Origin: Minisyncoccota bacterium
Lineage (GTDB): Bacteria; Patescibacteriota; Minisyncoccia; JBAYJV01
DNA length: 64,000 nt
Assembly (NCBI GenBank): GCA_041664925.1
Contig: JBAYJV010000002.1
Coordinates: 8,302 to 72,301 of the forward strand
Direction of reading: 5' to 3'
Shown: piece after piece, positions 2,945-49,287 of the stretch
Numbering within the stretch: position 1 is the first letter of the stretch
How the letters are laid out: each line of letters opens with the position of its first letter
Notes under the pieces: model-generated
What the model saw: only the letters and a program-made list of their open reading frames with translations
Databases searched by the model: none
What the model was told of the DNA's origin: nothing
Translations under genes and position numbers: made by a program

Positions 2945-4234
2945 ATGTCATCTAACTACAATGCAAAATTAATAGCTGATCTTTATGCAACTAGCGATTG
3001 GAAAAGGGCAATCCGTCTTTCTGATGAAATGGTTGAGATTGGCGATAATATATTCCCAAGACAGATATACGAAGCCTACAAAAAATTCCAGAATACTACG
3101 ATTTCTCATTATTTCGTGTCTGACCTTACAAGCTTTAAAACTAGCGATGCTATCGAAATATTGAAAGAAATAGCGCATAAAACCAGCAGATCAGCCGATA
3201 TTTCTATGATGGTGGACTATTTTATTGATATCGGATATTTTGAGTCAGAGATTGTCGTCAAGGTAAAAAACTTATTTCGTGCAGACATGAACTCAAAAGA
3301 TATTCGAGGATATGACATAGAAACATATTCTGCTTATCTCAAAAAAGCAGACAAAGAGACGAGTAATCTGGAATTATTTTTACGGGAATGTTTTGAGGAT
3401 GAAGAACAAGAAATTGATGCAAGGAAAACAGCGCTCGAAGAACTTTTAAAGTTAAAACCAAAAGAATATATTAATTTTTATTACGATAAATACGATTCTA
3501 TTAAGGGAAAGAAAACGGAAAATATTTTTGTAGAACAAATTTCTACCTGGCACGGAGGAATTGTACCCAAACTTCATCAGAAAATACTCGAAATCGGATC
3601 TGAAAGAGCTAAAGAAATATTACAGAATGAACAATCTAGAATAAAAAAAGAAAAACAATCTGAAGAGATGAAAGAACAAGAGGAAATAAAGAGGCAGTAC
3701 GAAACCGCAGACGTGCTTCACGATATAGGAAAATTAAGATTAAACATAAATAAAACTAGTATTGCTGACGAGAGATTTGGGTTCTCTTTTTTCTCACAAT
3801 CAGAAGAAATTTATCAACAAGTGAAACCGGCAAAGACCAAAAATGAATTCGTTGGTTGTTGTATTGTATTACGATCTTTTCTTAATGATTTTGATAAGCA
3901 AATTACAGAATTAAAAATTTCTGAAGAAAGGGGCAAAGAAATATTGCCCAACATAGAGAAATTTAGTGGAAACATAAACAAATTTCATTTTATGCTTAAA
4001 GAAAAAGGCTTAAATATTGACCAAGATATTTTTGGTCTCAGAAACATAAATTGCATTGTTTCAAAATTCGCTCATCCTGGTAAAAAAACTAATCTTGAAA
4101 TTAATAAGATTCTTAAAAAAGAAGTCTTATTGTTTAAGTATTATAAAGAAAATAACTGGTCAGCGCTGCACAGGGAGGTTTTGTTAAAATACAAAAAAGT
4201 ATTAGAGGAATTAATGAAGGTCATGGCAATGTAA
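2945..4234 (+). CDS. Hypothetical protein (429 aa, Lys/Glu-rich, predicted soluble)
   Basis: Long uninterrupted ORF in the local coding frame. No recognisable motif. Confidence 0.55.
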   Translation: MSSNYNAKLIADLYATSDWKRAIRLSDEMVEIGDNIFPRQIYEAYKKFQNTTISHYFVSDLTSFKTSDAIEILKEIAHKTSRSADISMMVDYFIDIGYFESEIVVKVKNLFRADMNSKDIRGYDIETYSAYLKKADKETSNLELFLRECFEDEEQEIDARKTALEELLKLKPKEYINFYYDKYDSIKGKKTENIFVEQISTWHGGIVPKLHQKILEIGSERAKEILQNEQSRIKKEKQSEEMKEQEEIKRQYETADVLHDIGKLRLNINKTSIADERFGFSFFSQSEEIYQQVKPAKTKNEFVGCCIVLRSFLNDFDKQITELKISEERGKEILPNIEKFSGNINKFHFMLKEKGLNIDQDIFGLRNINCIVSKFAHPGKKTNLEINKILKKEVLLFKYYKENNWSALHREVLLKYKKVLEELMKVMAM

Positions 4235-9479: not shown

Positions 9480-9730
9480 TTATAATTCTATGGCTCACAC
9501 TCGGAATTTAGAAGCTAGAAGTTGGAATTATGAAAAATCTCAAATAACAAATTTCAAATATCAAATCAAATCCAAATGATTTAATGATAAATAGGAATTA
9601 AGGACAATTTCAAACGAATTCGATGGCCATCCTACGTTAAAACTTCGGAATGGCAAGCTCACATCTTATGGCTCACGCTATGGCTCATTTCTTCCATTTG
9701 AGCCATAGACTCTATGGCTCATTTCGGCTT
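9480..9730. repeat. Iteron-like cluster of TATGGCTCA repeats (5 direct + 1 inverted copy) in a 360-bp intergenic region
   Basis: TCTATGGCTCACACTCGG (9487); CTTATGGCTCACGCTATGGCTCATTTCTTCCATTTGAGCCATAGACTCTATGGCTCATTTCGG (9664-9727). Confidence 0.5.
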
Positions 9731-20171: not shown

Positions 20172-20820
20172 ATGTATATTTATCTTGACGAATCATTCAA
20201 CCTGAGAAAGGGAGAGAAAAACCAATTTTTGATTATTGCGGGATTTGCCACTAAAAATCCAAAAGAAATTGCGAATATTTATAAGCGGATCAAAAAAACA
20301 CACGCTTCCGAAAAAGTTTATCAATCAGGAAATAAAAAGCACAAATCCTTTAGGGAATCGTGCGTTGAAACCAAAATTATTTTTAGAACTGAAAAAAACC
20401 GATATTCAGATTTATGCGATTTACCAACTTAAAAACCAATTGTCCAAAGATTATTTTCATAAAGAGAAGCTTTTATACGATAAGCTTTATTTAGATCTTT
20501 TAAACTATCTTTTGTTGAATGAGTGGAATTATTTTGATGATAAAATTGTTATTGTAACGATGGATTCTTTTAGGCCAGGAAAGATAAAAAAGGGAGAAAT
20601 CATCAATACATTAAAAAAGGGATTGGAAGATAAGTATTCCGGAAAGAAATTTTCCATATCTTTTGAAGATTCTGAAAAATTCCTGACGCTTCAATTGGCC
20701 GATCAATTTTGCGGTGTATTTTATCAGTTACTTCAGGAAAATCAAACTTGGTTTAAGATGATTGAGCCAAAATTAAAAAAGATAGTGAGCAATCCACTAT
20801 CCCCTTATAAAAAAAAGTAG
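20172..20820 (+). pseudogene. DUF3800-family gene interrupted by a frameshift (two overlapping ORFs, 20172-20432 and 20236-20820)
   Basis: N-terminal MYIYLDESFN (DUF3800 Y-x-DES start) in one frame. The C-terminal part, including LQLADQFCG, is in the +1 frame. An A7 run at 20294-20300 or an A5 run near 20330 are candidate slip sites. Confidence 0.5.
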
Positions 20821-23316: not shown

Positions 23317-23595
23317 ATGAACAAAAAGCTTTATGTAGGAAATCTTTCCTACAACACTACAGACAAGAGTTTGGAAGAGCATTTCTCACAAGCTGGTACC
23401 GTTGAATCTGCTGCTGTGATCATGGATCGCATGTCAGGCAGATCAAAGGGATTCGGTTTTGTTGAAATGGCATCAGACGAGGAAGCAAAGAAAGCCATCG
23501 AAATGCTTAATGGCAAAGAATTAGACGGTCGCGCCTTAAAGATTGATGAAGCAAGGCCTCCAAAAGAGAGACCAGCTTTCAAAAGAGAATTCTAA
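23317..23595 (+). CDS. RRM-type RNA-binding protein
   Basis: RNP2 LYVGNL and RNP1 KGFGFVEM. Size is 92 aa. TTGACT-N17-TATAAT promoter at 23145-23173 implies a ~140-nt 5'UTR with no SD. Confidence 0.8.
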   Translation: MNKKLYVGNLSYNTTDKSLEEHFSQAGTVESAAVIMDRMSGRSKGFGFVEMASDEEAKKAIEMLNGKELDGRALKIDEARPPKERPAFKREF

Positions 23596-25074: not shown

Positions 25075-25236
25075 CAATCAGCGAACCCTGTATTCAGCGT
25101 GGTACAGGGTGTTTTTAATTGAGTGCGTTTCTGAGTGTAACGAAGACTACGCAATCAATAACCCGTCCGTAGCTTTAGCGAAGGAGGGTTTTTTGTTTTC
25201 CCCAGTTTTGATTGCGACAGGATATAAAATTTGGTA

Positions 25237-30128: not shown

Positions 30129-31028
30129 TCAGGAGCATGTTGCTGCTTCCAGCTGTCCCAGTAAACGGCTGTACTTTGGATGAGCTTCAAGCCACATTCT
30201 AATCTTTTCAAGCGATTCTTTTTCAATCTGACGAGCTCTTTCGCCAGAAATCCCATGCTGTCTGCCTATTTCCTCGAATCCTTGTTCTTCTCTTGAAGGA
30301 TTCATTCCGTAACGCGCCCTTAGGACGGCTGCTTCCCTTTGAGAAAGACCCAAGACCATCGCTTCAGAAATAAGCCTTCTTATAGAACTGTTTCTGATCT
30401 CTTCTCCGACAACTTTTTCTGGAGAAAAAGTTTCATCAATAATACCATTAACTTCAGCGGTCTCATCAGGGTCACTTTTAATGGGCGTGTCTAAAGACAG
30501 CACATCAAAAACTCCAAGAGCGGCGATTAAAGTTTTGGGATTAATCTTATTCTTTCTAGCAAAATCTACTATCGCTATTTCGGTATTACTATTGAGTCTT
30601 GCGTCGGGATGTTCTCTTGCGAATTTGACGATTGACCACTTAATATTTTGAGGCAATCTAATAGGAGAGGATATATCGTGAAGTTTTCTCCCAATCGTAT
30701 CGTCAATCCACCAAACTGCGTAAGTTGATGGTTTGCTGCCTTTTGTTGAGTCGAATTTTGCCGATGAATCGTAAAAAACACGAAGCAAAACTAAATAACA
30801 GTCATGAAGTAAATCAGCAATAGTTTCTTCGTCATTAAAGGTTTGGATCTTTACGAAAATTCTCTTAAGGATTAGCTTGGTCATGCTTAAAACTAAGCGT
30901 GCACAAGCTTCTTTATCGCCATTTCTGGCCTTTTTGGCTAGTTCTAATTGTTCTTCTTTTCTTTGAATTTCTGTGAACAAGCTTTTTTCTGGCATCTGGA
31001 CATGACTCTCAATCGTCGCTAGTGGCAT
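30129..31028 (-). CDS. Sigma-70 family RNA polymerase sigma factor (divergent paralog 1)
   Basis: Region 2 (STYAVWWIDDTIGR) and region 4 HTH (LSQREAAVLRARYGM...EEIGRQHGISGERARQIEKESLEKIR). Confidence 0.75.
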   Translation of the reverse strand: MPLATIESHVQMPEKSLFTEIQRKEEQLELAKKARNGDKEACARLVLSMTKLILKRIFVKIQTFNDEETIADLLHDCYLVLLRVFYDSSAKFDSTKGSKPSTYAVWWIDDTIGRKLHDISSPIRLPQNIKWSIVKFAREHPDARLNSNTEIAIVDFARKNKINPKTLIAALGVFDVLSLDTPIKSDPDETAEVNGIIDETFSPEKVVGEEIRNSSIRRLISEAMVLGLSQREAAVLRARYGMNPSREEQGFEEIGRQHGISGERARQIEKESLEKIRMWLEAHPKYSRLLGQLEAATCS

Positions 31029-31267
31029 TGAACATCCTCCTTTAGAATTTCCTTCTGAATGTAATGAAGAGTAGAAATTCTTAAGCCCTTCCGTAGCTTC
31101 GGCTTGCCCTGCCTACCCTGCCTACCGGCAGGCAGGCGGAGCGTAGAAGGGTAATAATTTTTTAACACTAGACTGTATTTTCATTATTAAAGAACAATAC
31201 TTGCCAACAATACTAACATATTTTTATAAAAAAGCAACCCTCCTACGCACCAGTATAAAAACAATTA

Positions 31268-31385
31268 TCCCTGAAACCCCGCACCAGTATCCTGCAGCAG
31301 AATAAATTCGCTTCAGGACAAGTAAATACGGTGCGGGGTTGTGATTGCGTATTCCTTCATAAATTCAGGAACGCACTCAATAACA
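31268..31385 (-). repeat. ~115-bp composite element copy 1 (minus orientation): TTATTGAGTGCG..CGCAATCA hairpin + long ACCCCGCACC(N~45)GGTGCGGGGT hairpin
   Basis: The reverse complement matches 35041-35156 almost base for base. Confidence 0.5.
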
Positions 31386-31478
31386 AAAAGGAGAGGGAAG
31401 CTTTCTTCCCTCTCTGGTCCCGCTTGCCATGTAGCGAGACGCCCCGAGCACTCCGCAAAGGAGGTTCGACAACGGTGC
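31385..31478 (-). ncRNA. Candidate small RNA D (promoter + intrinsic terminator unit)
   Basis: Minus-sense TTGACA (31507-31512), 16-nt spacer, TACAAT (31485-31490), then ~90 nt ending in GGAGAGGGAAGAAAGCTTCCCTCTCC + T-run (31390-31416). A DnaA-box-like TTATCCACA abuts the -35. Confidence 0.3.
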
Positions 31479-31533
31479 TTCTTTATTGTACCAAACACCT
31501 AGCCTCTGTCAAGAGATATTGTGGATAAGTTAA

Positions 31534-31896
31534 TCAAAGCGTCTTTAGAAAAGAACGAAACTTAAACTTAAAAAAGTATCTTGCGAAGAAAACGCTGATT
31601 GCGACGGGAATTGCTAGGCCGAGAAATGGCGAAACAAGGACAACTGTTCCTCCAAGAATCGTTTTATTGGTGTAGTTTTCCTTCGTAAGTAAATAGATAG
31701 CAAGATCGAATGTAATGTACATCGCAGCGGCTAGATTTAACAGAAGACCGAAGCCGATTGTCGTAATCATTTTCCCTGAAAAACCTGTAAATTGAAGTAT
31801 GATAACCAAAAGAACCGTTTCTATAATCAATGACGGAAAAAGAACTTTATAAATAAACTCTCGCAAAAACTGATCATTCTTATCCTGCGTCTTCAT
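31534..31896 (-). CDS. Small integral membrane protein (120 aa, 3-4 TM); leader-class cassette gene
   Basis: Conserved leader on minus strand (31897-31960) with SD AGAGAGGTG. Preceded further upstream by a CCTGCCTACCGGCAGG hairpin. Confidence 0.5.
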   Translation of the reverse strand: MKTQDKNDQFLREFIYKVLFPSLIIETVLLVIILQFTGFSGKMITTIGFGLLLNLAAAMYITFDLAIYLLTKENYTNKTILGGTVVLVSPFLGLAIPVAISVFFARYFFKFKFRSFLKTL

Positions 31897-31960
31897 GTTT
31901 TCACCTCTCTTAGAGATTCTTGCTGAATGACAGTGAAATTAGAAGCTCTTTACCCTGAGC
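31897..31960 (-). promoter_or_regulatory. Conserved leader instance e (serves 31534-31896)
   Basis: TAAAGAGCTTCTAATTTCACTGTCATTCAGCAAGAATCTCTAAGAGAGGTGAAAAC-ATG. Confidence 0.45.
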
Positions 31961-32266
31961 TTGTCGAAGGGTTAGACCCCGGCTTGCCCTGCCTACCGGC
32001 AGGCAGGCGGGACTACACTTGCAACTCTTTCATTATAAAACAAAAAGAAGGAAAGTCAAATGTAAACCTGTTAACCGTTAAGCGTAAACCGTGAACCGCA
32101 AACCTCGCATTTCGCGATTAACGAATAACGACTAATTTTCTTGCCCTTCCGAAGCCCTGCCTACCGGCAGGCAGGCTTGTGCGTAGGAGGGTTGCATTTT
32201 AATCAAAATGTGCTAGTATCGTTGGCAGTTATCATGGTTCTTTAATATTAACAAAGGAGGGGGGGG

Positions 32267-33256
32267 ATGATTGGACAACTAGAAGTTCTCTATGCTTATT
32301 TCAGAGAAATTAGCAGAACTCCTCTTTTAACCAAAGAAGAAGAAATTGAATTGGCTAAAAAAATTGCTCAAGGAGACAAAGAGGCAAAAGAAAAATTTAT
32401 TAGAGCTAATCTGGGATTAGTTGCTTCAATTGTACAAAGATATAGAGTAAGAGATTCTCATTTAAGTTATTTTGACTTGATCCAAGAAGGAACATTGGGC
32501 TTAATTAGGGCGGTTGAAAAATTTAATCCTTGTAAAGAATGTAGATTTGCTAATTATGCCGCTTGGTGGATTAGACAATCGGTCTTGGTGGCAGTAGCAA
32601 AACATAGTAACAATATTAGATTGCCATGGGATGCAAGACGGTTGGTTTCCAAATTTACAAGAGAGAGTTCTGACGTAGGACTTAGTATGACTAACGGCGC
32701 GATGGCAGATTTTTGCAGAAAACACGCTGGAACCAATCGTAAGATACTAATCGCTGCTCTCGGGGCTTATAATAATATTGTGTGCTTGAATTTATCTATT
32801 GGCTGCGATGACAGTGATGCTATTGAAAGACAAAGCCTAAGAGAGATTCCTATTGAAGAGGATGGATTTGGAGATACCAATACCATAAAAATTGTTCTTG
32901 TTTCTCAAGAAGCAATTTCCTTGATGACCATAATTGGCGATGATGGAGATGCTCCCGAAGAGTATGTTTTAGGCGAGCAAAATCCTCAAGAAGATGAGCT
33001 CAGAAAATTGCGCAAAAAAGAAATCTTAGAAAAGGCGATGAATGCTGTTCTTAATTCTAGAGAAATAGATGTTCTCACCTTGCGATTTGGATTGGGAGAC
33101 ATAAAAGAACTAACTCTTCAAGAAGTAGCAGAGCAATATCATCTTTCTCGAGAAAGAATCAGACAGATTGAAAAAAATGCTCTTGAAAAAATTAAATGTT
33201 ATCTCAGAGCAGAATATGGAGAACGTATTCATGAATTAGCAAGATACCTTGTGTAA
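32267..33256 (+). CDS. Sigma-70 family RNA polymerase sigma factor (divergent paralog 2, with ~100-aa insertion between regions 2/3 and 4)
   Basis: Region 1.2/2 (LTKEEEIELAKKIAQGDKEAKEKFIRANLGLV...IQEGTLGLIRAVEKF...YAAWWIRQ) and region 4 (LTLRFGL...TLQEVAEQYHLSRERIRQIEKNALEKIK). Confidence 0.8.
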   Translation: MIGQLEVLYAYFREISRTPLLTKEEEIELAKKIAQGDKEAKEKFIRANLGLVASIVQRYRVRDSHLSYFDLIQEGTLGLIRAVEKFNPCKECRFANYAAWWIRQSVLVAVAKHSNNIRLPWDARRLVSKFTRESSDVGLSMTNGAMADFCRKHAGTNRKILIAALGAYNNIVCLNLSIGCDDSDAIERQSLREIPIEEDGFGDTNTIKIVLVSQEAISLMTIIGDDGDAPEEYVLGEQNPQEDELRKLRKKEILEKAMNAVLNSREIDVLTLRFGLGDIKELTLQEVAEQYHLSRERIRQIEKNALEKIKCYLRAEYGERIHELARYLV

Positions 33257-33465
33257 AATGGTAAGCGGTCACTAAAGAATAGTGACCGCATTTATAATCC
33301 TTGCTTTTTCTTATAAATGTGTTAATATGGGGACCTAGAATAGTTCTTTAACTTAATGTAGTCCTACGGTCACGAATAAAGTCCTCCTTCACTAAAGTTA
33401 CGGCGGGACGTAAGAATCTTCATTTCTCGTAAACTCGAAAGAATCTTCTAACGGAGGTGGGAAAA

Positions 33466-34320
33466 ATGTTTGAATGGCAAAAAGGAATTAGAAGCTATCT
33501 TAAAGAAATTGGCAAAATTCCTCTTTTAACTAGAGAACAAGAATTTGCTTTAGCTGAAAGAGTTGCCAACGGAGACAAAAAGGCAACAGAAGAATTTGCT
33601 CTAGCGAATTTGCGATTAGTCGTTTCAGTCGCAAGAAACATTCATTATTATTCTCCCACGCTCAGCATGCTCGATCTGATTCAAGAAGGCAATATTGGTT
33701 TAATGAAAGCTATCGAGAAATTCGATCGCCATAAAGGCTATAAATTCTCCACATACGCGAAATGGTGGATTTGGCAAGCGATTTTGAGAGCAATATCGGA
33801 TCATGGTAGAGACATAAGACTACCGTCTCATATACTTGAATCAATTCGCAAGGCTCAAAGGAAAATTTCTCAAGAGAAAGATAGAGAAGAGGATCCAAGA
33901 GATTTAGGAGAAATTCTTGAAGAAGACGGATTGAGCGATGCGAGTATTGTTGGGATTATCTCTGCTACTCGCGGAAGACTTTCTTTGGATGTTGAACTTG
34001 GAGAAGACGGAGAAACTTTTGAAGAATATGCTGATGGCAAGCAACCTTCTCAAGAAGATGAATTTAATGCATTGAGAAAAAGAGAAATCATAAAAGAGGC
34101 GATAAATGAGACTCTTGATGATAGAGAGAAGGATATTATTAACTTGCGATTTGGGATGGATGGGACAAAAGCATTAACTCTTAAAGAAATATCAGCTCTG
34201 CATGATATTAGTCGAGAAAGAATTAGGCAAATTCAAATAAAAGCTCTTAGAAAGATCGGACACTATATTGAAACAAAATATAGGGAGCAAATGACGGACA
34301 TAGAAAAAGCGTTTTTATAG
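33466..34320 (+). CDS. Sigma-70 family RNA polymerase sigma factor (divergent paralog 3)
   Basis: LLTREQEFALAERVANGDKKA...ANLRLVVSVAR...IQEGNIGLMKAIEKFD...YAKWWIWQAI and region 4 (INLRFGM...TLKEISALHDISRERIRQIQIKALRKI). ATG is 5 nt after GGAGGTGG. The ORF track used the GTG at 33457. Confidence 0.8.
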   Translation: MFEWQKGIRSYLKEIGKIPLLTREQEFALAERVANGDKKATEEFALANLRLVVSVARNIHYYSPTLSMLDLIQEGNIGLMKAIEKFDRHKGYKFSTYAKWWIWQAILRAISDHGRDIRLPSHILESIRKAQRKISQEKDREEDPRDLGEILEEDGLSDASIVGIISATRGRLSLDVELGEDGETFEEYADGKQPSQEDEFNALRKREIIKEAINETLDDREKDIINLRFGMDGTKALTLKEISALHDISRERIRQIQIKALRKIGHYIETKYREQMTDIEKAFL

Positions 34321-34377
34321 CAGTTGCTAAGGATTGGTTAAAACTTGACAATGGGTAAAATTCTGTTAGTATAGTAA

Positions 34378-34486
34378 ACAGGAGCGCAGAGGTGATTCTC
34401 GGCGTTCTCTTGACTCCATAACGCTCCATTGGGGAGTATCTTGGTGATTCACACGGAAGGGGAAGATGGCTTTCCCTTCCTTTTTG
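34378..34486 (+). ncRNA. Candidate small RNA A
   Basis: TTGACA (34345-34350), 16-nt spacer, TAGTAT. Then ~105 nt ending in GGAAGGGGAAGATGGCTTTCCCTTCC + T5. Shares the GCG(T)TCTCTTGACTC core with sRNA B. Confidence 0.3.
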
Positions 34487-34532
34487 TTATCTGCGTTTCT
34501 GAGTTAAGCGAAGATTACGCAAATAACAATCC

Positions 34533-34650
34533 TGAGCGAAGCTTGCCCTGAACTTAGTTGAAGGGTCGAAGAATTTATCCTGAGCGAAGTTTGCCCTGAA
34601 CTTAGTTGAAGGGTCGAAGAATTTATCCTGAGCGAAGTCGAAGGATCCTC
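34533..34650. repeat. Tandem repeat, ~54-bp unit x 2.2
   Basis: AATCCTGAGCGAAGCTTGCCCTGAACTTAGTTGAAGGGTCGAAGAATTT / ATCCTGAGCGAAGTTTGCCCTGAACTTAGTTGAAGGGTCGAAGAATTT / ATCCTGAGCGAAGTCGAAGG. Confidence 0.6.
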
Positions 34651-34684
34651 TTGACATAAAATAAAATTCTGTTAGTATTATATA

Positions 34685-34792
34685 CGAGAAACAAGAAAAA
34701 TGCTGGGTTGATACCCAGCGCTCTCTTGACTCACGTTCCATAGTGGAACGTTCCAATGGTTCGGAGAGGGAAGATGGCTTCCCTCTCTTTTT
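34685..34792 (+). ncRNA. Candidate small RNA B
   Basis: TTGACA (34651-34656), 16-nt spacer, TAGTAT (34673-34678). Terminator GAGAGGGAAGATGGCTTCCCTCTC + T5 (34764-34792). Confidence 0.3.
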
Positions 34793-34912
34793 ATTGACTC
34801 TGTTTTTGAATGAAATGAAAATTACAGAGTTAACAACCCCGCACCGTATTTACTTGTCCTGAAGCGAATTTATTCTGCTGCAGGATACTGGTGCGGGGTA
34901 TTTATCCTCTTG
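34793..34912 (+). repeat. Composite element copy 2
   Basis: TTATTGACTCTGTTTTTGAATGAAATGAAAATTACAGAGTTAACAACCCCGCACCGTATTTACTTGTCCTGAAGCGAATTTATTCTGCTGCAGGATACTGGTGCGGGGT. Confidence 0.5.
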
Positions 34913-34941
34913 ACATAGAATAAAGTTTTGATAACATAAAT

Positions 34942-35047
34942 ATTGAGGAAGGTAGCTCCTCACTCCCGGTGTCCTGGCGTCCTCCTGGTGGACGTCCTGC
35001 CACCCGCCGTGCGCTGGAGAGGGAAATAGTTTCCCTCTCCTTTTTTT
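34942..35047 (+). ncRNA. Candidate small RNA C (GC-rich)
   Basis: TTGACA (34909-34914) with a weak -10 (TAACAT). GC-rich body ...GGTGTCCTGGCGTCCTCCTGGTGGACGTCCTGCCACCCGCCGTGCGCTGG. Terminator GGAGAGGGAAATAGTTTCCCTCTCC + T8 (35015-35047). Confidence 0.3.
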
Positions 35048-35156
35048 ATTGAGTGCGTTCCTGAATTTATGAAGGAATACGCAATCAATAACCCCGCACC
35101 GTATTTACTTGTCCTGAAGCGAATTTATTCTGCAGCAGGATACTGGTGCGGGGTTT
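35041..35156 (+). repeat. Composite element copy 3
   Basis: TTATTGAGTGCGTTCCTGAATTTATGAAGGAATACGCAATCAATAACCCCGCACCGTATTTACTTGTCCTGAAGCGAATTTATTCTGCAGCAGGATACTGGTGCGGGGT. Confidence 0.5.
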
Positions 35157-35204
35157 ATTATTGTACTTCGGGGTTTACGCTCTGGTGCTGGTTTTTTTTA
35201 CAAT

Positions 35205-35435
35205 TAAATATCCACCCATATCCATAAATATCATCCGCTCGGGGCGGATAAATATCCATTAATGTCTATGAATTTTAAGAATTATAATTTAAATATTGTT
35301 TCGTATTTCGGATTTTGATATTCGGATTTTATTATATATATAATATTGTAGCTCTGTTTGAGTTATCCACAGAATCTTAGAAAAGTTATCCACAGATTAT
35401 AGGCGCTTTTTCAGGTTTATCACTATCCATGCATT
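35205..35435. promoter_or_regulatory. DnaA-box cluster with adjacent AT-rich tract (oriC-like or DnaA-regulated region)
   Basis: Perfect TTATCCACA at 35363-35371 and 35386-35394 (direct, 23 bp apart). 7/9 or 6/9 matches near 35209, 35221, 35263, 35417 and 35424. AT-rich 35281-35350 (...TTTCGTATTTCGGATTTTGATATTCGGATTTTATTATATATATAATATTG). Confidence 0.35.
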
Positions 35436-35772
35436 CTTTGACAATGATCTAGTTTTTTTGGTAGGATTGGTTATAAAGAAAGAGGAGAAATATATTTCAT
35501 CGCTAACAAAAATTTGTTAGAAACAACAAAATGCATTGTTTGTCTTTGTTTGTAGGGGGGACAAACGGCTCATTTAAAAACCAACACGAGAGAGGATTGG
35601 TTTTTTTTGTTTAAAATCGTTGTGTAGATGTCCGACATCTACAGCCAAGCGAGAAGGAACAGAACCTTAAAAACGGAAAAATTATTTACACTAGTGTTGA
35701 TAATTGATTATTGAAAGTTGAAAATTAATTCGCAAGCTTAGCTAAAAATGTGTGACAACATTAAAGCTTCGC

Positions 35773-35895
35773 GTCATCCTGAGTGTTTCCTGTCATTCCG
35801 CACTTGATGCGGAATCCAGGAAATAAAACAGATTCCTGCTCGCCTTGCTGTCGAAGCAGGCCTATGCAGGAATGACAGGATTATATCAGGATGAC
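35773..35895. mobile_element. 123-bp MITE-like element with nested inverted repeats
   Basis: GTCATCCTGAGTG...CCTGTCATTCC...GGAATGACAGG...ATCAGGATGAC. Inner hairpins TTCCGCACTTGATGCGGAA and CCTGCTCGCCTTGCTGTCGAAGCAGG. Confidence 0.4.
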
Positions 35896-36110
35896 AAACA
35901 TAAAATGGTCGACCACACATCTAAGCTTATTATTGAAAGGTTAATTAACCTTTTCTCTGATTTTCAACGTATCGTAGGGCGTAGTACGAAATACGCAATA
36001 CGAAATACGATTTGAAAAATCGAGAACTTAAATTGATCTTAGTTATGAAAAAAGAATGAAGAAACCAAAGGAGGCTTCTGCATTTCAAAATCATAACTTA
36101 AATTAAAAAA

Positions 36111-42881: not shown

Positions 42882-42969
42882 ATTTTTCCCACTTCAATTC
42901 ACTAATGTACGAGATTCGACCTCGTACATTTTATATCTTGACAAAAAGAACGGTTTTGATAATATAGAT

Positions 42970-43072
42970 AGTGGCAATCCTGCAACCCACGGATGCTGGA
43001 TGCCAGGGGTAATTGGTACCCCACCGTACCCTCCCGCGCAGAGAGGGAGGACGAGCCTCCCTCTCCCTTTTC
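42970..43072 (+). ncRNA. Candidate small RNA E (same promoter/terminator architecture; shares TCCTGC(A/C)ACCC(A/G)C..GCTGG motif with sRNA C)
   Basis: TTGACA (42938-42943), 16-nt spacer, TAATAT. Terminator GAGAGGGAGGACGAGCCTCCCTCTCC + T-run (43041-43071). The overlapping 72-aa minus ORF is judged spurious. Confidence 0.3.
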
Positions 43073-43482: not shown

Positions 43483-43683
43483 AATTTGATTAAATTATTG
43501 ACCGATTTGTGTCTTCCTTCTAATCCTATCAAAAATTCAGTCGATTGACAACTAACAAAACAAAACCCACAACGATACAATTTTACATTAAACAACATTA
43601 AAACACGACAGTTGTGGATAAATAATATTGATTAATTAATACAGTTGTATTACAATAGAATTATATCAACTAACTACAATTAT

Positions 43684-43917
43684 ATGCGCCAAGTAATAAG
43701 TTTATCTTTTGCAGAAAATGTCGCCAAAGAGGTTAAAACCCTTTCTAGAAAAAGAGGATATTTTTCTGTTAGTAAATATATTCAAGGATTAGTAGAGATG
43801 GACAAGGAAATCATTTCTGAACAGGAGTTGTTAAGTTCAATTAAACAGTCAAGACAGGAATACAAAAAGGGCAAAGCGATTACTGCTAAATCAATGGCAG
43901 AACTATATGATAATTAA
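43684..43917 (+). CDS. Putative antitoxin of RelE/ParE-type TA pair
   Basis: Small ORF (MRQVISLSF...) overlapping the toxin gene start by 11 nt. Start chosen at the internal ATG. Confidence 0.45.
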   Translation: MRQVISLSFAENVAKEVKTLSRKRGYFSVSKYIQGLVEMDKEIISEQELLSSIKQSRQEYKKGKAITAKSMAELYDN

Positions 43918-44179
43918 GGCTATTTATTATTCTAAAAAATTTCAGCAAGAATTAAAGAAACTGCCAAAAGAAATTGTTAATTTAGCAATTAAAAAAGAAT
44001 CGTTGTTCAGAAAGAACCCACTACACACTTCTTTGCGCCTTCACGAATTACATGTAAAGTTTCAAGGCATTTGGTCTATATCTATAACGGGAAATTATAG
44101 AATCATCTTTGAGAGGATGACTAATGGCGATATCCTGTTCATCTCTATCGGCAAGCACGATATTTATAGATATTTATAA
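43907..44179 (+). CDS. RelE/ParE-family type II toxin
   Basis: 90 aa with ...LHELHVKFQGIWSISITGNYRIIFERMTNGDILFISIGKHDIY, the characteristic RelE/ParE C-terminal pattern. Confidence 0.7.
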   Translation: MIIKAIYYSKKFQQELKKLPKEIVNLAIKKESLFRKNPLHTSLRLHELHVKFQGIWSISITGNYRIIFERMTNGDILFISIGKHDIYRYL

Positions 44180-48246: not shown

Positions 48247-49287
48247 CTACTGAACGGTTACTTCGTACCGTCCAGTCACCTCCTCTCCGTTAAGAGAGGC
48301 GGTAACCGTCCATGTTCCGGAGTGGAAGAACTTGACCTTGATGTATTGGCCAAAATCTCCCCACACCTTCACGATCTCGAAGTCATCGCCGAGAACCGGC
48401 GACGAATCGCCGCAGCACCAAGCGAAGTCCCAAGAGATCTTCGTCTTGTTGCAGCCACAGCCACAATCTGGCTCCGATGGGCAAGGGACGATACCTTGAA
48501 TTCCGACGCTCTGTTCATCGAAGACATTTCTGCACTGGTCGCATTCATCGAAACACGGCCAGTCGTTGAAGAGAACTGCGATCTCGAATTCATCGTATGC
48601 CGAGACGCATCCTCTCTCCGGTTCCAGACGGTCCAATACGATCGAATCGCATGGGTCATCGCACGGATCGTCGGGACAAGGCGGCGTTGGGTCGCAGCAC
48701 TCCTCAACCTTTAGGGTTGCGGTCTTATATGCGACCGTTCCCGCATCGTCCCGTACCGTCAGGTAAATGGTCTTCGTTCCGGCCGATCCGAATGTGAAAG
48801 TCGTGGACGAGTCGGAACTCACGTGGCCATCACTTGAGGACCATTCATAGGTAATCGGGCGACTGTGTTCGATAACCGCCGATACCCGCGTCGGGATGTT
48901 CTTGCAGACAGGATTGAGGTCGATGTTGATAGACGTAATCCTGACGAACGGCTTCTCTCCGACGGTGATGGTAATCGAGTCGCTTGCCGTCTCGGTGCCA
49001 CACATCCCGCTGTTGGTCACCGTAACCGTTGCAGTGTAGGTGCCAACGTTTTGGTAGACGTGGATTGGGTTCTCTTCGGAACTTGTTCCACCGTCTCCGA
49101 ATGACCATGCGCGCGTCTTATCTGCACAAGTAGTTACGGCACTGAACGCGACCGTCAAGGGCGCGTAGCCGCTGGTTCGATCAGCCGAGACTTCGACTGT
49201 GGGCGGAACTGTCATACATCCGCCCAGACCGAGCGCCAGTACTACGACCAGCGCGCCAAGCAGTACAAACATCCGTCCTCGCTTCAT
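48247..49287 (-). CDS. Lipoprotein with PKD domains and Cys-rich C-terminal domain (GC-rich island)
   Basis: Lipobox LALGLGGC. PKD: GYAPLTVAFSA...WSFGDGGTSSEENPIHVY..GTYTATVTVTN. C-terminal EECCDPTPPCPDDPCDDPCD...CGCGCN...WCCGD. Confidence 0.7.
   Translation of the reverse strand: MKRGRMFVLLGALVVVLALGLGGCMTVPPTVEVSADRTSGYAPLTVAFSAVTTCADKTRAWSFGDGGTSSEENPIHVYQNVGTYTATVTVTNSGMCGTETASDSITITVGEKPFVRITSINIDLNPVCKNIPTRVSAVIEHSRPITYEWSSSDGHVSSDSSTTFTFGSAGTKTIYLTVRDDAGTVAYKTATLKVEECCDPTPPCPDDPCDDPCDSIVLDRLEPERGCVSAYDEFEIAVLFNDWPCFDECDQCRNVFDEQSVGIQGIVPCPSEPDCGCGCNKTKISWDFAWCCGDSSPVLGDDFEIVKVWGDFGQYIKVKFFHSGTWTVTASLNGEEVTGRYEVTVQ

Follow-up and report, generated by a model that had tools for sequence, protein, structure and literature searches.

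Promoter-terminator units beside sigma-70 genes in a Paceibacteria lineage are candidate members of a small RNA family

The subject of this analysis is a set of five short promoter-terminator units, here called A to E, in a 64,000-nt stretch of a Minisyncoccota bacterium contig (JBAYJV010000002.1), referred to throughout as the window. Four of the units lie around three genes that a Pfam scan assigns to the sigma-70 family (Table 1), in agreement with the initial annotation, which had seen regions 2 and 4 in all three. Sigma2 and sigma3 both contain regions 1.2, 2 and 4, with a weak region 3 in sigma3; in the divergent sigma1, region 4 is found at 1e-10 and region 2 is weak, scoring below the cut-off (19.9 bits against 24). 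Alignment finds no region 1.1 in any of the three proteins, and it bears out the idiosyncratic insertions previously described: sigma2 carries 44 aa within region 3, while small insertions interrupt region 2 of sigma1 and precede its region 4. The identity of sigma3 is 45% to a Thermotogota RpoD, 40% to sigma2 and 31% to sigma1. An identical sigma3 protein is found in two 'Candidatus Paceibacterota bacterium' metagenome-assembled genomes (MFA6437108.1 and MFA6896591.1), which places the window in a Patescibacteria genome of the candidate phyla radiation.

The region downstream of sigma3 (34321-36110), described at first reading as free of open reading frames (ORFs), indeed holds only mechanical ORFs of 52-89 aa, and no gene is called there on an identical public contig (L081). 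Units A, B and C lie in this region, and a consensus scan recovers all five units annotated initially, each with its promoter and terminator. The common design consists of a TTGACA/extended -10 promoter, a GC-rich body of ~70-80 nt and a hairpin of the GAGAGGGAAG type followed by a T-run. The promoters are of the near-consensus housekeeping type (cTTGACA, a spacer of 16-17 nt, with 16 nt in A to D, and a TG-extended TAnnAT), and the terminator hairpins are G+C-rich and 10-11 bp long, with a 5' arm that is all purine and a 3' arm that is all pyrimidine. The predicted transcripts are 94-114 nt in length. The GC content of the units is 46-62%, against ~38% around the locus and a range of ~33-49% in the window. 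A strict scan for promoter and terminator together detects 6 units in the window, where 0.1 would be expected by chance (the mean of 30 first-order Markov simulations), and the hairpin pattern is matched three times against an expectation of 0.02. Among the terminators seen behind protein genes in the window, none uses a hairpin of this type. Contrary to the earlier claim, the terminator sequence is not shared exactly: A (GAAGGGGAAG/CTTTCCCTTC), C (GAGAGGGAAA/TTTCCCTCTC) and E (GAGAGGGAGG/CCTCCCTCTC) have hairpins that depart from GAGAGGGAAG/CTTCCCTCTC by compensated changes.

The bodies are far more individual. The promoter of unit A begins 24 nt past the sigma3 stop codon, with no terminator between, and its body contains a core, GCGUUCUCUUGACUCC, while unit B has its core, GCGCUCUCUUGACUCAC, between two hairpins that precede the terminator; the 11-nt core common to A and B, noted previously, is real by BLAST (E=0.01). 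Unit C includes CUCCUCACUCCC and GUCCUCCUGG in its body and has a terminator loop of 3 nt. Unit D, with a TTGACA-N16-TACAAT promoter, has a predicted transcript of ~95 nt containing ACCUCCUUU and ending in the GAGAGGGAAG/CTTCCCTCTC hairpin, and unit E, which lies 3' of the gene for a 1384-aa VWA protein, carries a CCCUCCC motif. The string that had been reported as common to C and E is present in both, but at opposite ends of the bodies and without significance in BLAST. Downstream of A lies B, and downstream of B lies C, behind which ~1 kb contains no ORF; palindromes, and convergent or unrelated genes, lie beyond D and E. Assignment of the units to the riboswitch or 5' leader class was rejected because no regulated ORF lies downstream of any of them.

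Searches of 5.8 billion proteins with sigma3 and sigma1 identified just three species-level relatives, designated sp2 (contigs L083-85), sp3 (L086-88 and L092) and sp4 (L089 and L090), with W denoting the species of the window. The sigma3 orthologs in these species are 73-76% identical, the next matches being generic sigma factors at 46%; those of sigma1 are 66-70% identical and confined to the same three species, the next match being at 31%. Sigma2 is seen solely on contigs of W and is missing from the syntenic loci of the other three. A scan of GTDB representatives with sigma3 gave best matches of <=50% identity in other phyla, and was useless for the study of synteny. Synteny of the sp2, sp3 and sp4 contigs with the window extends from the pyruvate:ferredoxin oxidoreductase (POR) genes to the VWA-domain protein, and these contigs contain six further distinct units of the A-E design at syntenic positions. 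In all three, a unit at the D position directly follows the 120-aa gene, a gene whose product contains no Pfam domain and for which a homolog search returned only itself; likewise in all three, an A- or B-type unit lies directly 3' of an ORF of ~100 aa downstream of sigma3. The A/B-type copy of sp4 is almost identical to that of sp2, and in sp3 an E-type unit adjoins the B unit.

The ~100-aa ORF is conserved in sp2, sp3 and sp4, where it has its own TTGACT-N17-TACAAT promoter; it contains no Pfam domain, and no trace of it is present in the window, so that its interpretation as an anti-sigma factor was rejected. The restriction of sigma2 to W, together with the absence of this ORF, implies that W gained a sigma paralog, lost the ORF and expanded the array to A, B and C. 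A metagenome scan with the exact terminator retrieved one related contig (L092) and three unrelated terminators. Seven matches on viral contigs were all ordinary terminators unlike the units, five being further copies of the phage gene end seen in L093/L094.

Alignment of 11 units from the four species shows CTTGAC, the TG extension, TAnnAT and the hairpin to be invariant or nearly so, while the bodies fail to align between unit types. Between positional orthologs the promoters are 70-86% identical and the terminators 81-100%; the bodies are only 51-63% identical, except for those of B and its sp3 ortholog (83%), compared with 50±3% for shuffled bodies and 70-83% DNA identity in the sigma3 gene region. 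Conservation in relatives, one of the checks originally proposed, is thus found for promoter and terminator and for the most part not for the bodies, which are near random. The body of the sp4 D-position unit, rather than resembling W-D, shares CTCCTCACT with W-C and is the closest relative of the unit C body, and at the E position of sp2 the promoter region is kept while the body is AT-rich and unrelated, as is the terminator. These differences imply that bodies appear to have been exchanged across conserved flanks. BLAST found no second copy of any unit body in the window or the related loci. A class of repetitive extragenic palindromic (REP) or miniature inverted-repeat transposable element (MITE) type was rejected for the units, their bodies being unique and not copies of the palindromic repeats of the genome. 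The palindromes beside the units and the 67-nt element do, on the other hand, show the recurrence that marks this class.

The predicted minimum free energy folds of the units consist of two or three local hairpins and the terminator, with unpaired ends, and folding z-scores against shuffles range from -2.9 to -7.5. Among nine distinct terminator sequences, 94.9% of the cells in the stem alignment are paired and three pairs have changed on both sides, a covariation score reached by none of 500 shuffles; unit C supplies a fourth compensated pair, from G-C to A-U at the loop-closing position. No change introduces a pyrimidine into the 5' arm or a purine into the 3' arm. Between unit B and its sp3 ortholog, hairpin 2 (U-A to C-G) and the terminator each show one compensated pair, and the alignments of D and of E contain a few more. 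Given the small number of sequences, this covariation is supportive rather than statistically decisive. The original proposal of a family with common promoter and terminator gains from these comparisons, as the relatives keep the design while the hairpin and unit B change compensatorily. No conserved ORF exists in the units, candidate frames differing between orthologs: those proximal to the start encode 9 aa in A and 3 aa in B and sp3-B, while that of sp2-A runs through the terminator. The covariance-model search that had been recommended gave no Rfam match at the gathering score anywhere in the window, and permissive E-values produced only sub-threshold noise at 31.0-36.2, 42.9-43.1, 20.7-21.0 and 34.3-35.1 kb; hence no Rfam family of a different nature explains the units. 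A tRNA/tmRNA scan of the window was also negative.

The bodies are not devoid of common motifs. CCUCC is present in six of the seven C/D/E-type bodies, and the seventh has CUCCUC. This frequency was reached by none of 20,000 composition-preserving shuffles, and in a conservative set of four bodies, all of which contain the motif, by four of 20,000. The W genome has strong GGAGG ribosome-binding sites, to which CCUCC is complementary. Among the D orthologs ACCUCC is invariant, and we take the W-D tract in which it stands, ACCUCCUUU, to resemble the 3' end of 16S rRNA (the anti-Shine-Dalgarno sequence). The A/B-type bodies instead share GCGYUYUCYYGACUC.

The interpretation that the evidence on balance favours is that A to E are sibling small RNAs (sRNAs), which would be independently transcribed and act mainly by pairing with Shine-Dalgarno (SD) regions. 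The fallback offered in the initial annotation, that of trans-acting sRNAs, is accordingly the best-supported of its readings, given the retention of promoter and terminator, the lack of a conserved ORF and the lack of an Rfam match. The five units would constitute one paralogous family, apparently restricted to a small Paceibacteria lineage of the candidate phyla radiation (CPR). In the proposed mechanism, each unit would be transcribed from its own promoter through a GC-rich body of two or three hairpins to a family-specific intrinsic terminator, and antisense pairing with mRNAs would be the likeliest mode of action. CCUCC in the C/D/E-type RNAs may cover ribosome-binding sites and so block the initiation of translation, and the GCGYUYUCYYGACUC core of the A/B-type RNAs may serve as a different seed. 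As no separate terminator intervenes, A/B-type units would also end the transcript of the upstream ORF, doubling as its terminator, such that these RNAs may be made both from their own promoter and as 3' untranslated region (3'-UTR) fragments. The earlier idea that the units are ends of processed transcripts is partly right for the A/B type, with no terminator separating it from the upstream ORF. The family is likely to diversify through tandem duplication, fast divergence of the bodies and the exchange of bodies between loci across conserved flanks.

Several observations weigh against this interpretation. Body identities barely above those of shuffled sequence are what unconstrained sequence would also show, and the covariation derives from four closely related species only. 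In base-pairing sRNAs the seed is usually better conserved than the terminator, whereas in these units no part is conserved as well as the terminator sequence, a hint of another or additional function. The predicted exposure of CCUCC is also mixed, the probability of being unpaired lying at 0.5-0.75 in four RNAs and at 0.06-0.21, i.e. buried, in W-D and sp3-D. Searches of the window for targets, using exact-complement k-mers and windowed duplexes because full-length duplexes gave artefactual long loops, yielded nothing significant in ~320 tests (best z of -2 to -3.2), and such searches are limited by the ability of any CCUCC to pair with any SD. The non-significant leads comprise the pairing of W-D CCUCCUUUG with the ribosome-binding site of sigma2 (CAAAGGAGG), that of W-D with AAGGAGGUUC of a PKD-protein gene (48247-49287, start at 49287), and that of the W-E 5' end (42969-42990) with the start region of a DUF3800 gene (20234-20255; -26.6 kcal/mol, z = -3.2). 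This last duplex, found among 64 translation-initiation regions, pairs 18 of 19 positions with one bulge, and is not conserved in sp3-E.

The high conservation of the hairpin sequence, beyond its structure, would be accounted for if the units were protein-binding RNAs, in which the polypurine/polypyrimidine 3' hairpin and U-tail serve as the docking site of a dedicated RNA-binding protein, which would act as a chaperone or be itself sequestered by the RNAs. Tandem copies would then raise the dose, and variable bodies would matter less. The hairpin is exclusive to the units, and a candidate partner exists in an RRM_1 protein (23317-23595), the only RNA-binding domain among ~56 window ORFs scanned with Pfam, whose gene is syntenic in sp2. 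No gene for Hfq, ProQ or CsrA was found among the same ORFs, however, and the hairpin tolerates compensated transitions at four positions, as an ordinary terminator does, while the enrichment of CCUCC indicates that the bodies are under selection as well. This model appears unlikely, although it is compatible with pairing to SD regions and does not exclude it. The lack of a terminator between the sigma3 stop codon and A, or between the ~100-aa ORF and the A/B-type unit in sp2-sp4, would instead agree with cis-acting 3' elements, either terminator/insulator modules or the 3'-UTR ends of sigma3 and ~100-aa ORF transcripts, with fortuitous or weak promoter hexamers and no function in trans. Such an explanation is judged improbable, as units B-E each stand behind a complete terminator, with no ORF left for them to terminate, the promoter motifs are invariant across the 11 units of four species, and insulation does not need three strong terminators in series.

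Bodies of near random identity between species, and the different body type at the D position of sp4, are also what would be seen if the units were non-functional or selfish repeats, in which a promoter-terminator module has been spread by duplication and recombination and the sequence between drifts. The intergenic DNA is certainly rich in REP-like palindromes, and 67-nt elements that are 99-100% identical adjoin the units. Nevertheless, promoter and terminator remain intact where even the sigma3 genes have diverged to 70-83% DNA identity, the units are GC-rich and strongly folded within a region of ~38% GC, CCUCC is enriched, helices change compensatorily and the positions are syntenic rather than scattered, making this a rather remote alternative. 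The speculation that the units are 6S-like or sigma-titrating RNAs, binding the RNA polymerase holoenzyme or a neighbouring sigma paralog, is very improbable. It would fit the physical linkage to sigma genes in four species and the TTGAC-like string in the A/B core of W, but the RNAs would be 94-114 nt rather than ~180 nt, the predicted folds leave the 5' and 3' ends unpaired and lack a rod around a central bubble, Rfam gives no 6S match even at E<=10, and TTGAC is replaced by TCGAC in sp2 and CTGAC in sp3. The coupling of the units to the sigma cluster proposed at the outset is therefore retained as a linkage conserved in four species, but functional coupling is not evidenced: as the whole neighbourhood from POR to VWA is syntenic, the linkage appears to represent conserved synteny only, and beyond proximity the sole tie is the non-significant complementarity of W-D to the sigma2 ribosome-binding site. 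Equally far from likely is that the units are genes for very small proteins or leader peptides. A and sp2-A do have SD-like AGGAG/GAGAGG sequences followed by GUG/AUG, but the frames described above are not conserved, C/D/E types lack an SD with a start codon and the substitutions in unit B follow a base-pairing rather than a codon logic.

If the units are indeed sibling sRNAs, the nearest known parallel is LhrC, of which four copies are in tandem and one is elsewhere. The five units here similarly comprise four at one locus, three of them in tandem, and one 8 kb away; they are also of similar size, each has its own promoter and Rho-independent terminator, and both hosts are low in GC. In Listeria monocytogenes this sRNA occurs in five copies (LhrC1-5), with CU-rich UCCC motifs through which it binds the SD region (PMC4132741), and the C/U-rich motifs of both sets are complementary to the SD (UCCC/CUCCC in LhrC, CCUCC in A-E). 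The likeness is confined to architecture and proposed mechanism, as there is no homology in sequence or in Rfam. LhrC copies are nearly identical, whereas A-E share promoter and terminator and have almost wholly different bodies; one of the LhrC motifs lies in the terminator loop, whereas A-E have a variable tetraloop there and their C/U-rich tract is paired, as the 3' arm of the stem; and LhrC has experimental support, whereas A-E are predictions from sequence.

The pairing of a C-rich motif with the SD to block translation initiation, as proposed for A-E, is an established mechanism for the C-rich/UCCC anti-SD sRNAs of Firmicutes, namely RsaE, RNAIII, SprD and FsrA (PMC4132741). Those RNAs are single-copy and well conserved, with conserved seeds, in contrast to the fast-evolving surroundings and mixed predicted accessibility of the motif in A-E. 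RsaE is also called RoxS. DapZ and MicL are sRNAs derived from 3'-UTRs with an internal promoter; A/B-type units resemble them in directly following a stop codon, using the terminator of the mRNA and having their own promoter, but units B-E of the window stand free after complete terminators. With 6S RNA (RF00013 and related) the units have in common only their proximity to sigma genes. That RNA is ~150-200 nt long, its 5' and 3' ends pairing in a long rod around a central bubble like an open promoter, and the units differ from it in length, fold and covariance-model match.

The units appear new and narrowly distributed, with no homology to LhrC or to the anti-SD sRNAs named above. CPR regulatory RNAs appear to have been little studied: Rfam has no model for A-E, and a full-text literature search on sRNAs of CPR/Patescibacteria found nothing relevant. 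Genomes in the ~1-Mb class and an episymbiont lifestyle are the general picture of the CPR, and, if expressed, the units would represent a multi-copy sRNA family in such a lineage, with an unusual evolutionary pattern in which expression signals are better conserved than bodies. The loci lend themselves to metatranscriptome mining, and the family would also offer a test of whether anti-SD riboregulation of the Firmicutes type operates in the CPR. With just four species among 5.8 billion proteins, the clade is very small and the immediate reach of the finding correspondingly narrow.

A perfect DnaA box (TTATCCACA) lies upstream of the -35 of unit D, and in all four species such a box is found 7-8 nt before the -35 at this position. 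By our own estimate from base composition, ~0.8 perfect boxes would be expected in the window, in which there are 6. The conserved placement and the excess suggest that DnaA acts as a transcription factor at these promoters. A tentative and rather doubtful extension of the sRNA interpretation would be a modular CPR-specific sRNA system, with a fixed promoter and hairpin, bodies that diversify fast and move between loci as cassettes, and a dedicated RNA-binding partner of the hairpin, in which a hub of the sRNAs, sigma genes and DnaA-box promoters would link replication status to post-transcriptional control in a minimal genome.

Table 1. Positions of the genes, units and other elements discussed, in the window or, where a contig is named, on contigs of the related species
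Feature	Position	Strand	Details
Sigma1	30129..31028	-	divergent sigma-70 family gene, 299 aa
Sigma2	32267..33256	+	lineage-specific sigma-70 paralog, 329 aa
Sigma3	33466..34320	+	primary-like sigma-70, 284 aa; 287 aa if the upstream GTG at 33457 is used
120-aa hydrophobic protein gene	31534..31896	-	probably a membrane protein; always precedes unit D
Unit A	34345..34486	+	promoter 34345-34372, hairpin 34455-34480
Unit B	34651..34794	+	promoter 34651-34678, hairpin 34763-34788
Unit C	34910..35047	+	promoter 34910-34937, hairpin 35016-35040
Unit D	31384..31512	-	promoter 31512-31485, hairpin 31414-31391
Unit E	42938..43072	+	promoter 42938-42965, hairpin ~43040-43066
Unit A counterpart, sp2	L083 11380-11519
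Unit A counterpart, sp4	L089 1422-1561
Unit B ortholog, sp3	L092 1643-1502
D-position unit, sp4	L090 425-561
Unit E counterpart, sp3	L092 1203-1076		carries the terminator variant of unit E
~100-aa ORF, sp2	L083 11037-11372		between sigma3 and A/B unit
~100-aa ORF, sp4	L089 1112-1414		between sigma3 and A/B unit
~100-aa ORF, sp3	L092 1647-1949	-	between sigma3 and A/B unit
DnaA box	31520..31528	-	perfect; 7 nt upstream of the unit D -35
D-position DnaA box, sp2	L083 ~9549-9557
D-position DnaA box, sp3	L092 ~3666-3674
D-position DnaA box, sp4	L090 ~408-416
Filler after unit A	34480..34640		post-terminator palindrome and 2.4 tandem copies of a 49-nt unit
Filler after unit B	34787..34899		post-terminator palindrome and 67-nt element
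Conserved non-coding block	35200..35435	+	~90-100% identical to L083 11650-11900
Unit F	35438..35611	+	TTGACA-N18-TAGGAT, AT-rich body of ~140 nt, different terminator
Element H	35733..35935	+	nested-helix element of ~200 nt, upstream of a 365-aa gene
Unit G	20934-20774	-	promoter-terminator unit, different terminator, body of ~105 nt

The sigma genes themselves have related upstream sequences. The promoters and leaders of sigma1 and sigma2 (31197-31253 and 32176-32232) form a 57-nt inverted repeat with 84% identity that brackets the module of the 120-aa gene and unit D, and in sp2 and sp4 this module is in the opposite orientation, which suggests inversion by recombination between the flanking repeats. 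A TTGC[AT]T-N17-TA[GA]TAT pattern is common to all three sigma genes, and the leader motif GTTCTTTAA is found upstream of sigma1 and sigma3.

Much of the DNA between the units is repetitive. The palindrome after unit A belongs to family D8, which is also found behind protein genes. Post-terminator palindromes of the form TTATTGA..GCGTT..AACGC..TCAATAA likewise follow protein genes (e.g. at 25112), and therefore appear to be a genome-wide intergenic element rather than part of the sRNA design. A 67-nt imperfect palindrome is present in three copies (31276-31342, 34833-34899 and 35090-35156), each downstream of a unit (D, B and C, respectively), and at 99-100% identity these have either spread recently or been homogenised.

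Where it aligns with sp2, the rest of the ORF-free region (35200-36110) shows ~90% identity, and is hence more conserved than the sRNA units. In its first block (35200-35435), a GC hairpin is surrounded by ATATCCAY repeats; the block also includes an AT-rich stretch and, 23 nt apart, two perfect DnaA boxes (35363 and 35386). It resembles an oriC, but this was rejected as the main reading, there being no switch in GC skew and no exceptional density of degenerate boxes. Unit F is nearly identical to L083 11902-12071, though the sigma proteins of the two species are 72% identical; the body differs by a single indel of 3 nt, and a 20-codon frame that begins with ATG in sp2 has ATA as its first codon in the window. 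Unit F does not belong to the A-E family. Element H, with a consensus fold of -59.9 kcal/mol, is made of GTCATTCCGCACTTGATGCGGAATCC and CCTGC..GCAGGAATGAC units; as these palindromic units are massively repeated in sp2, in an array of ~700 nt after the VWA gene (L083 19100-19800), its candidacy as a novel structured RNA was rejected in favour of a repeat-derived origin. Distant from the locus, the body of unit G is closed by a long-range stem (GUAAGUCCCAACUG...CAGUUGGGCUAC). This unit is convergent with the DUF3800 gene (20236-20820), the 3' end of which it overlaps, and it has no match in Rfam, DUF3800 motifs included.

Downstream of the locus, the stretch 36111-57401 is occupied by a series of genes for proteins that are probably secreted or on the cell surface; their domains are VWA/SdrD_B, lamin-tail, PKD and camelysin M73, the last two in two genes each. 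Within it, a ParE/YafQ/RelE-like toxin gene (43907-44179) overlaps an upstream 90-aa ORF that is likely to encode the antitoxin (region 43645-44179), and a perfect DnaA box lies at 43613, just upstream of the pair. Gene orientation turns from the forward to the reverse strand near 43 kb, and the cumulative GC skew reaches its maximum near 46-47 kb.

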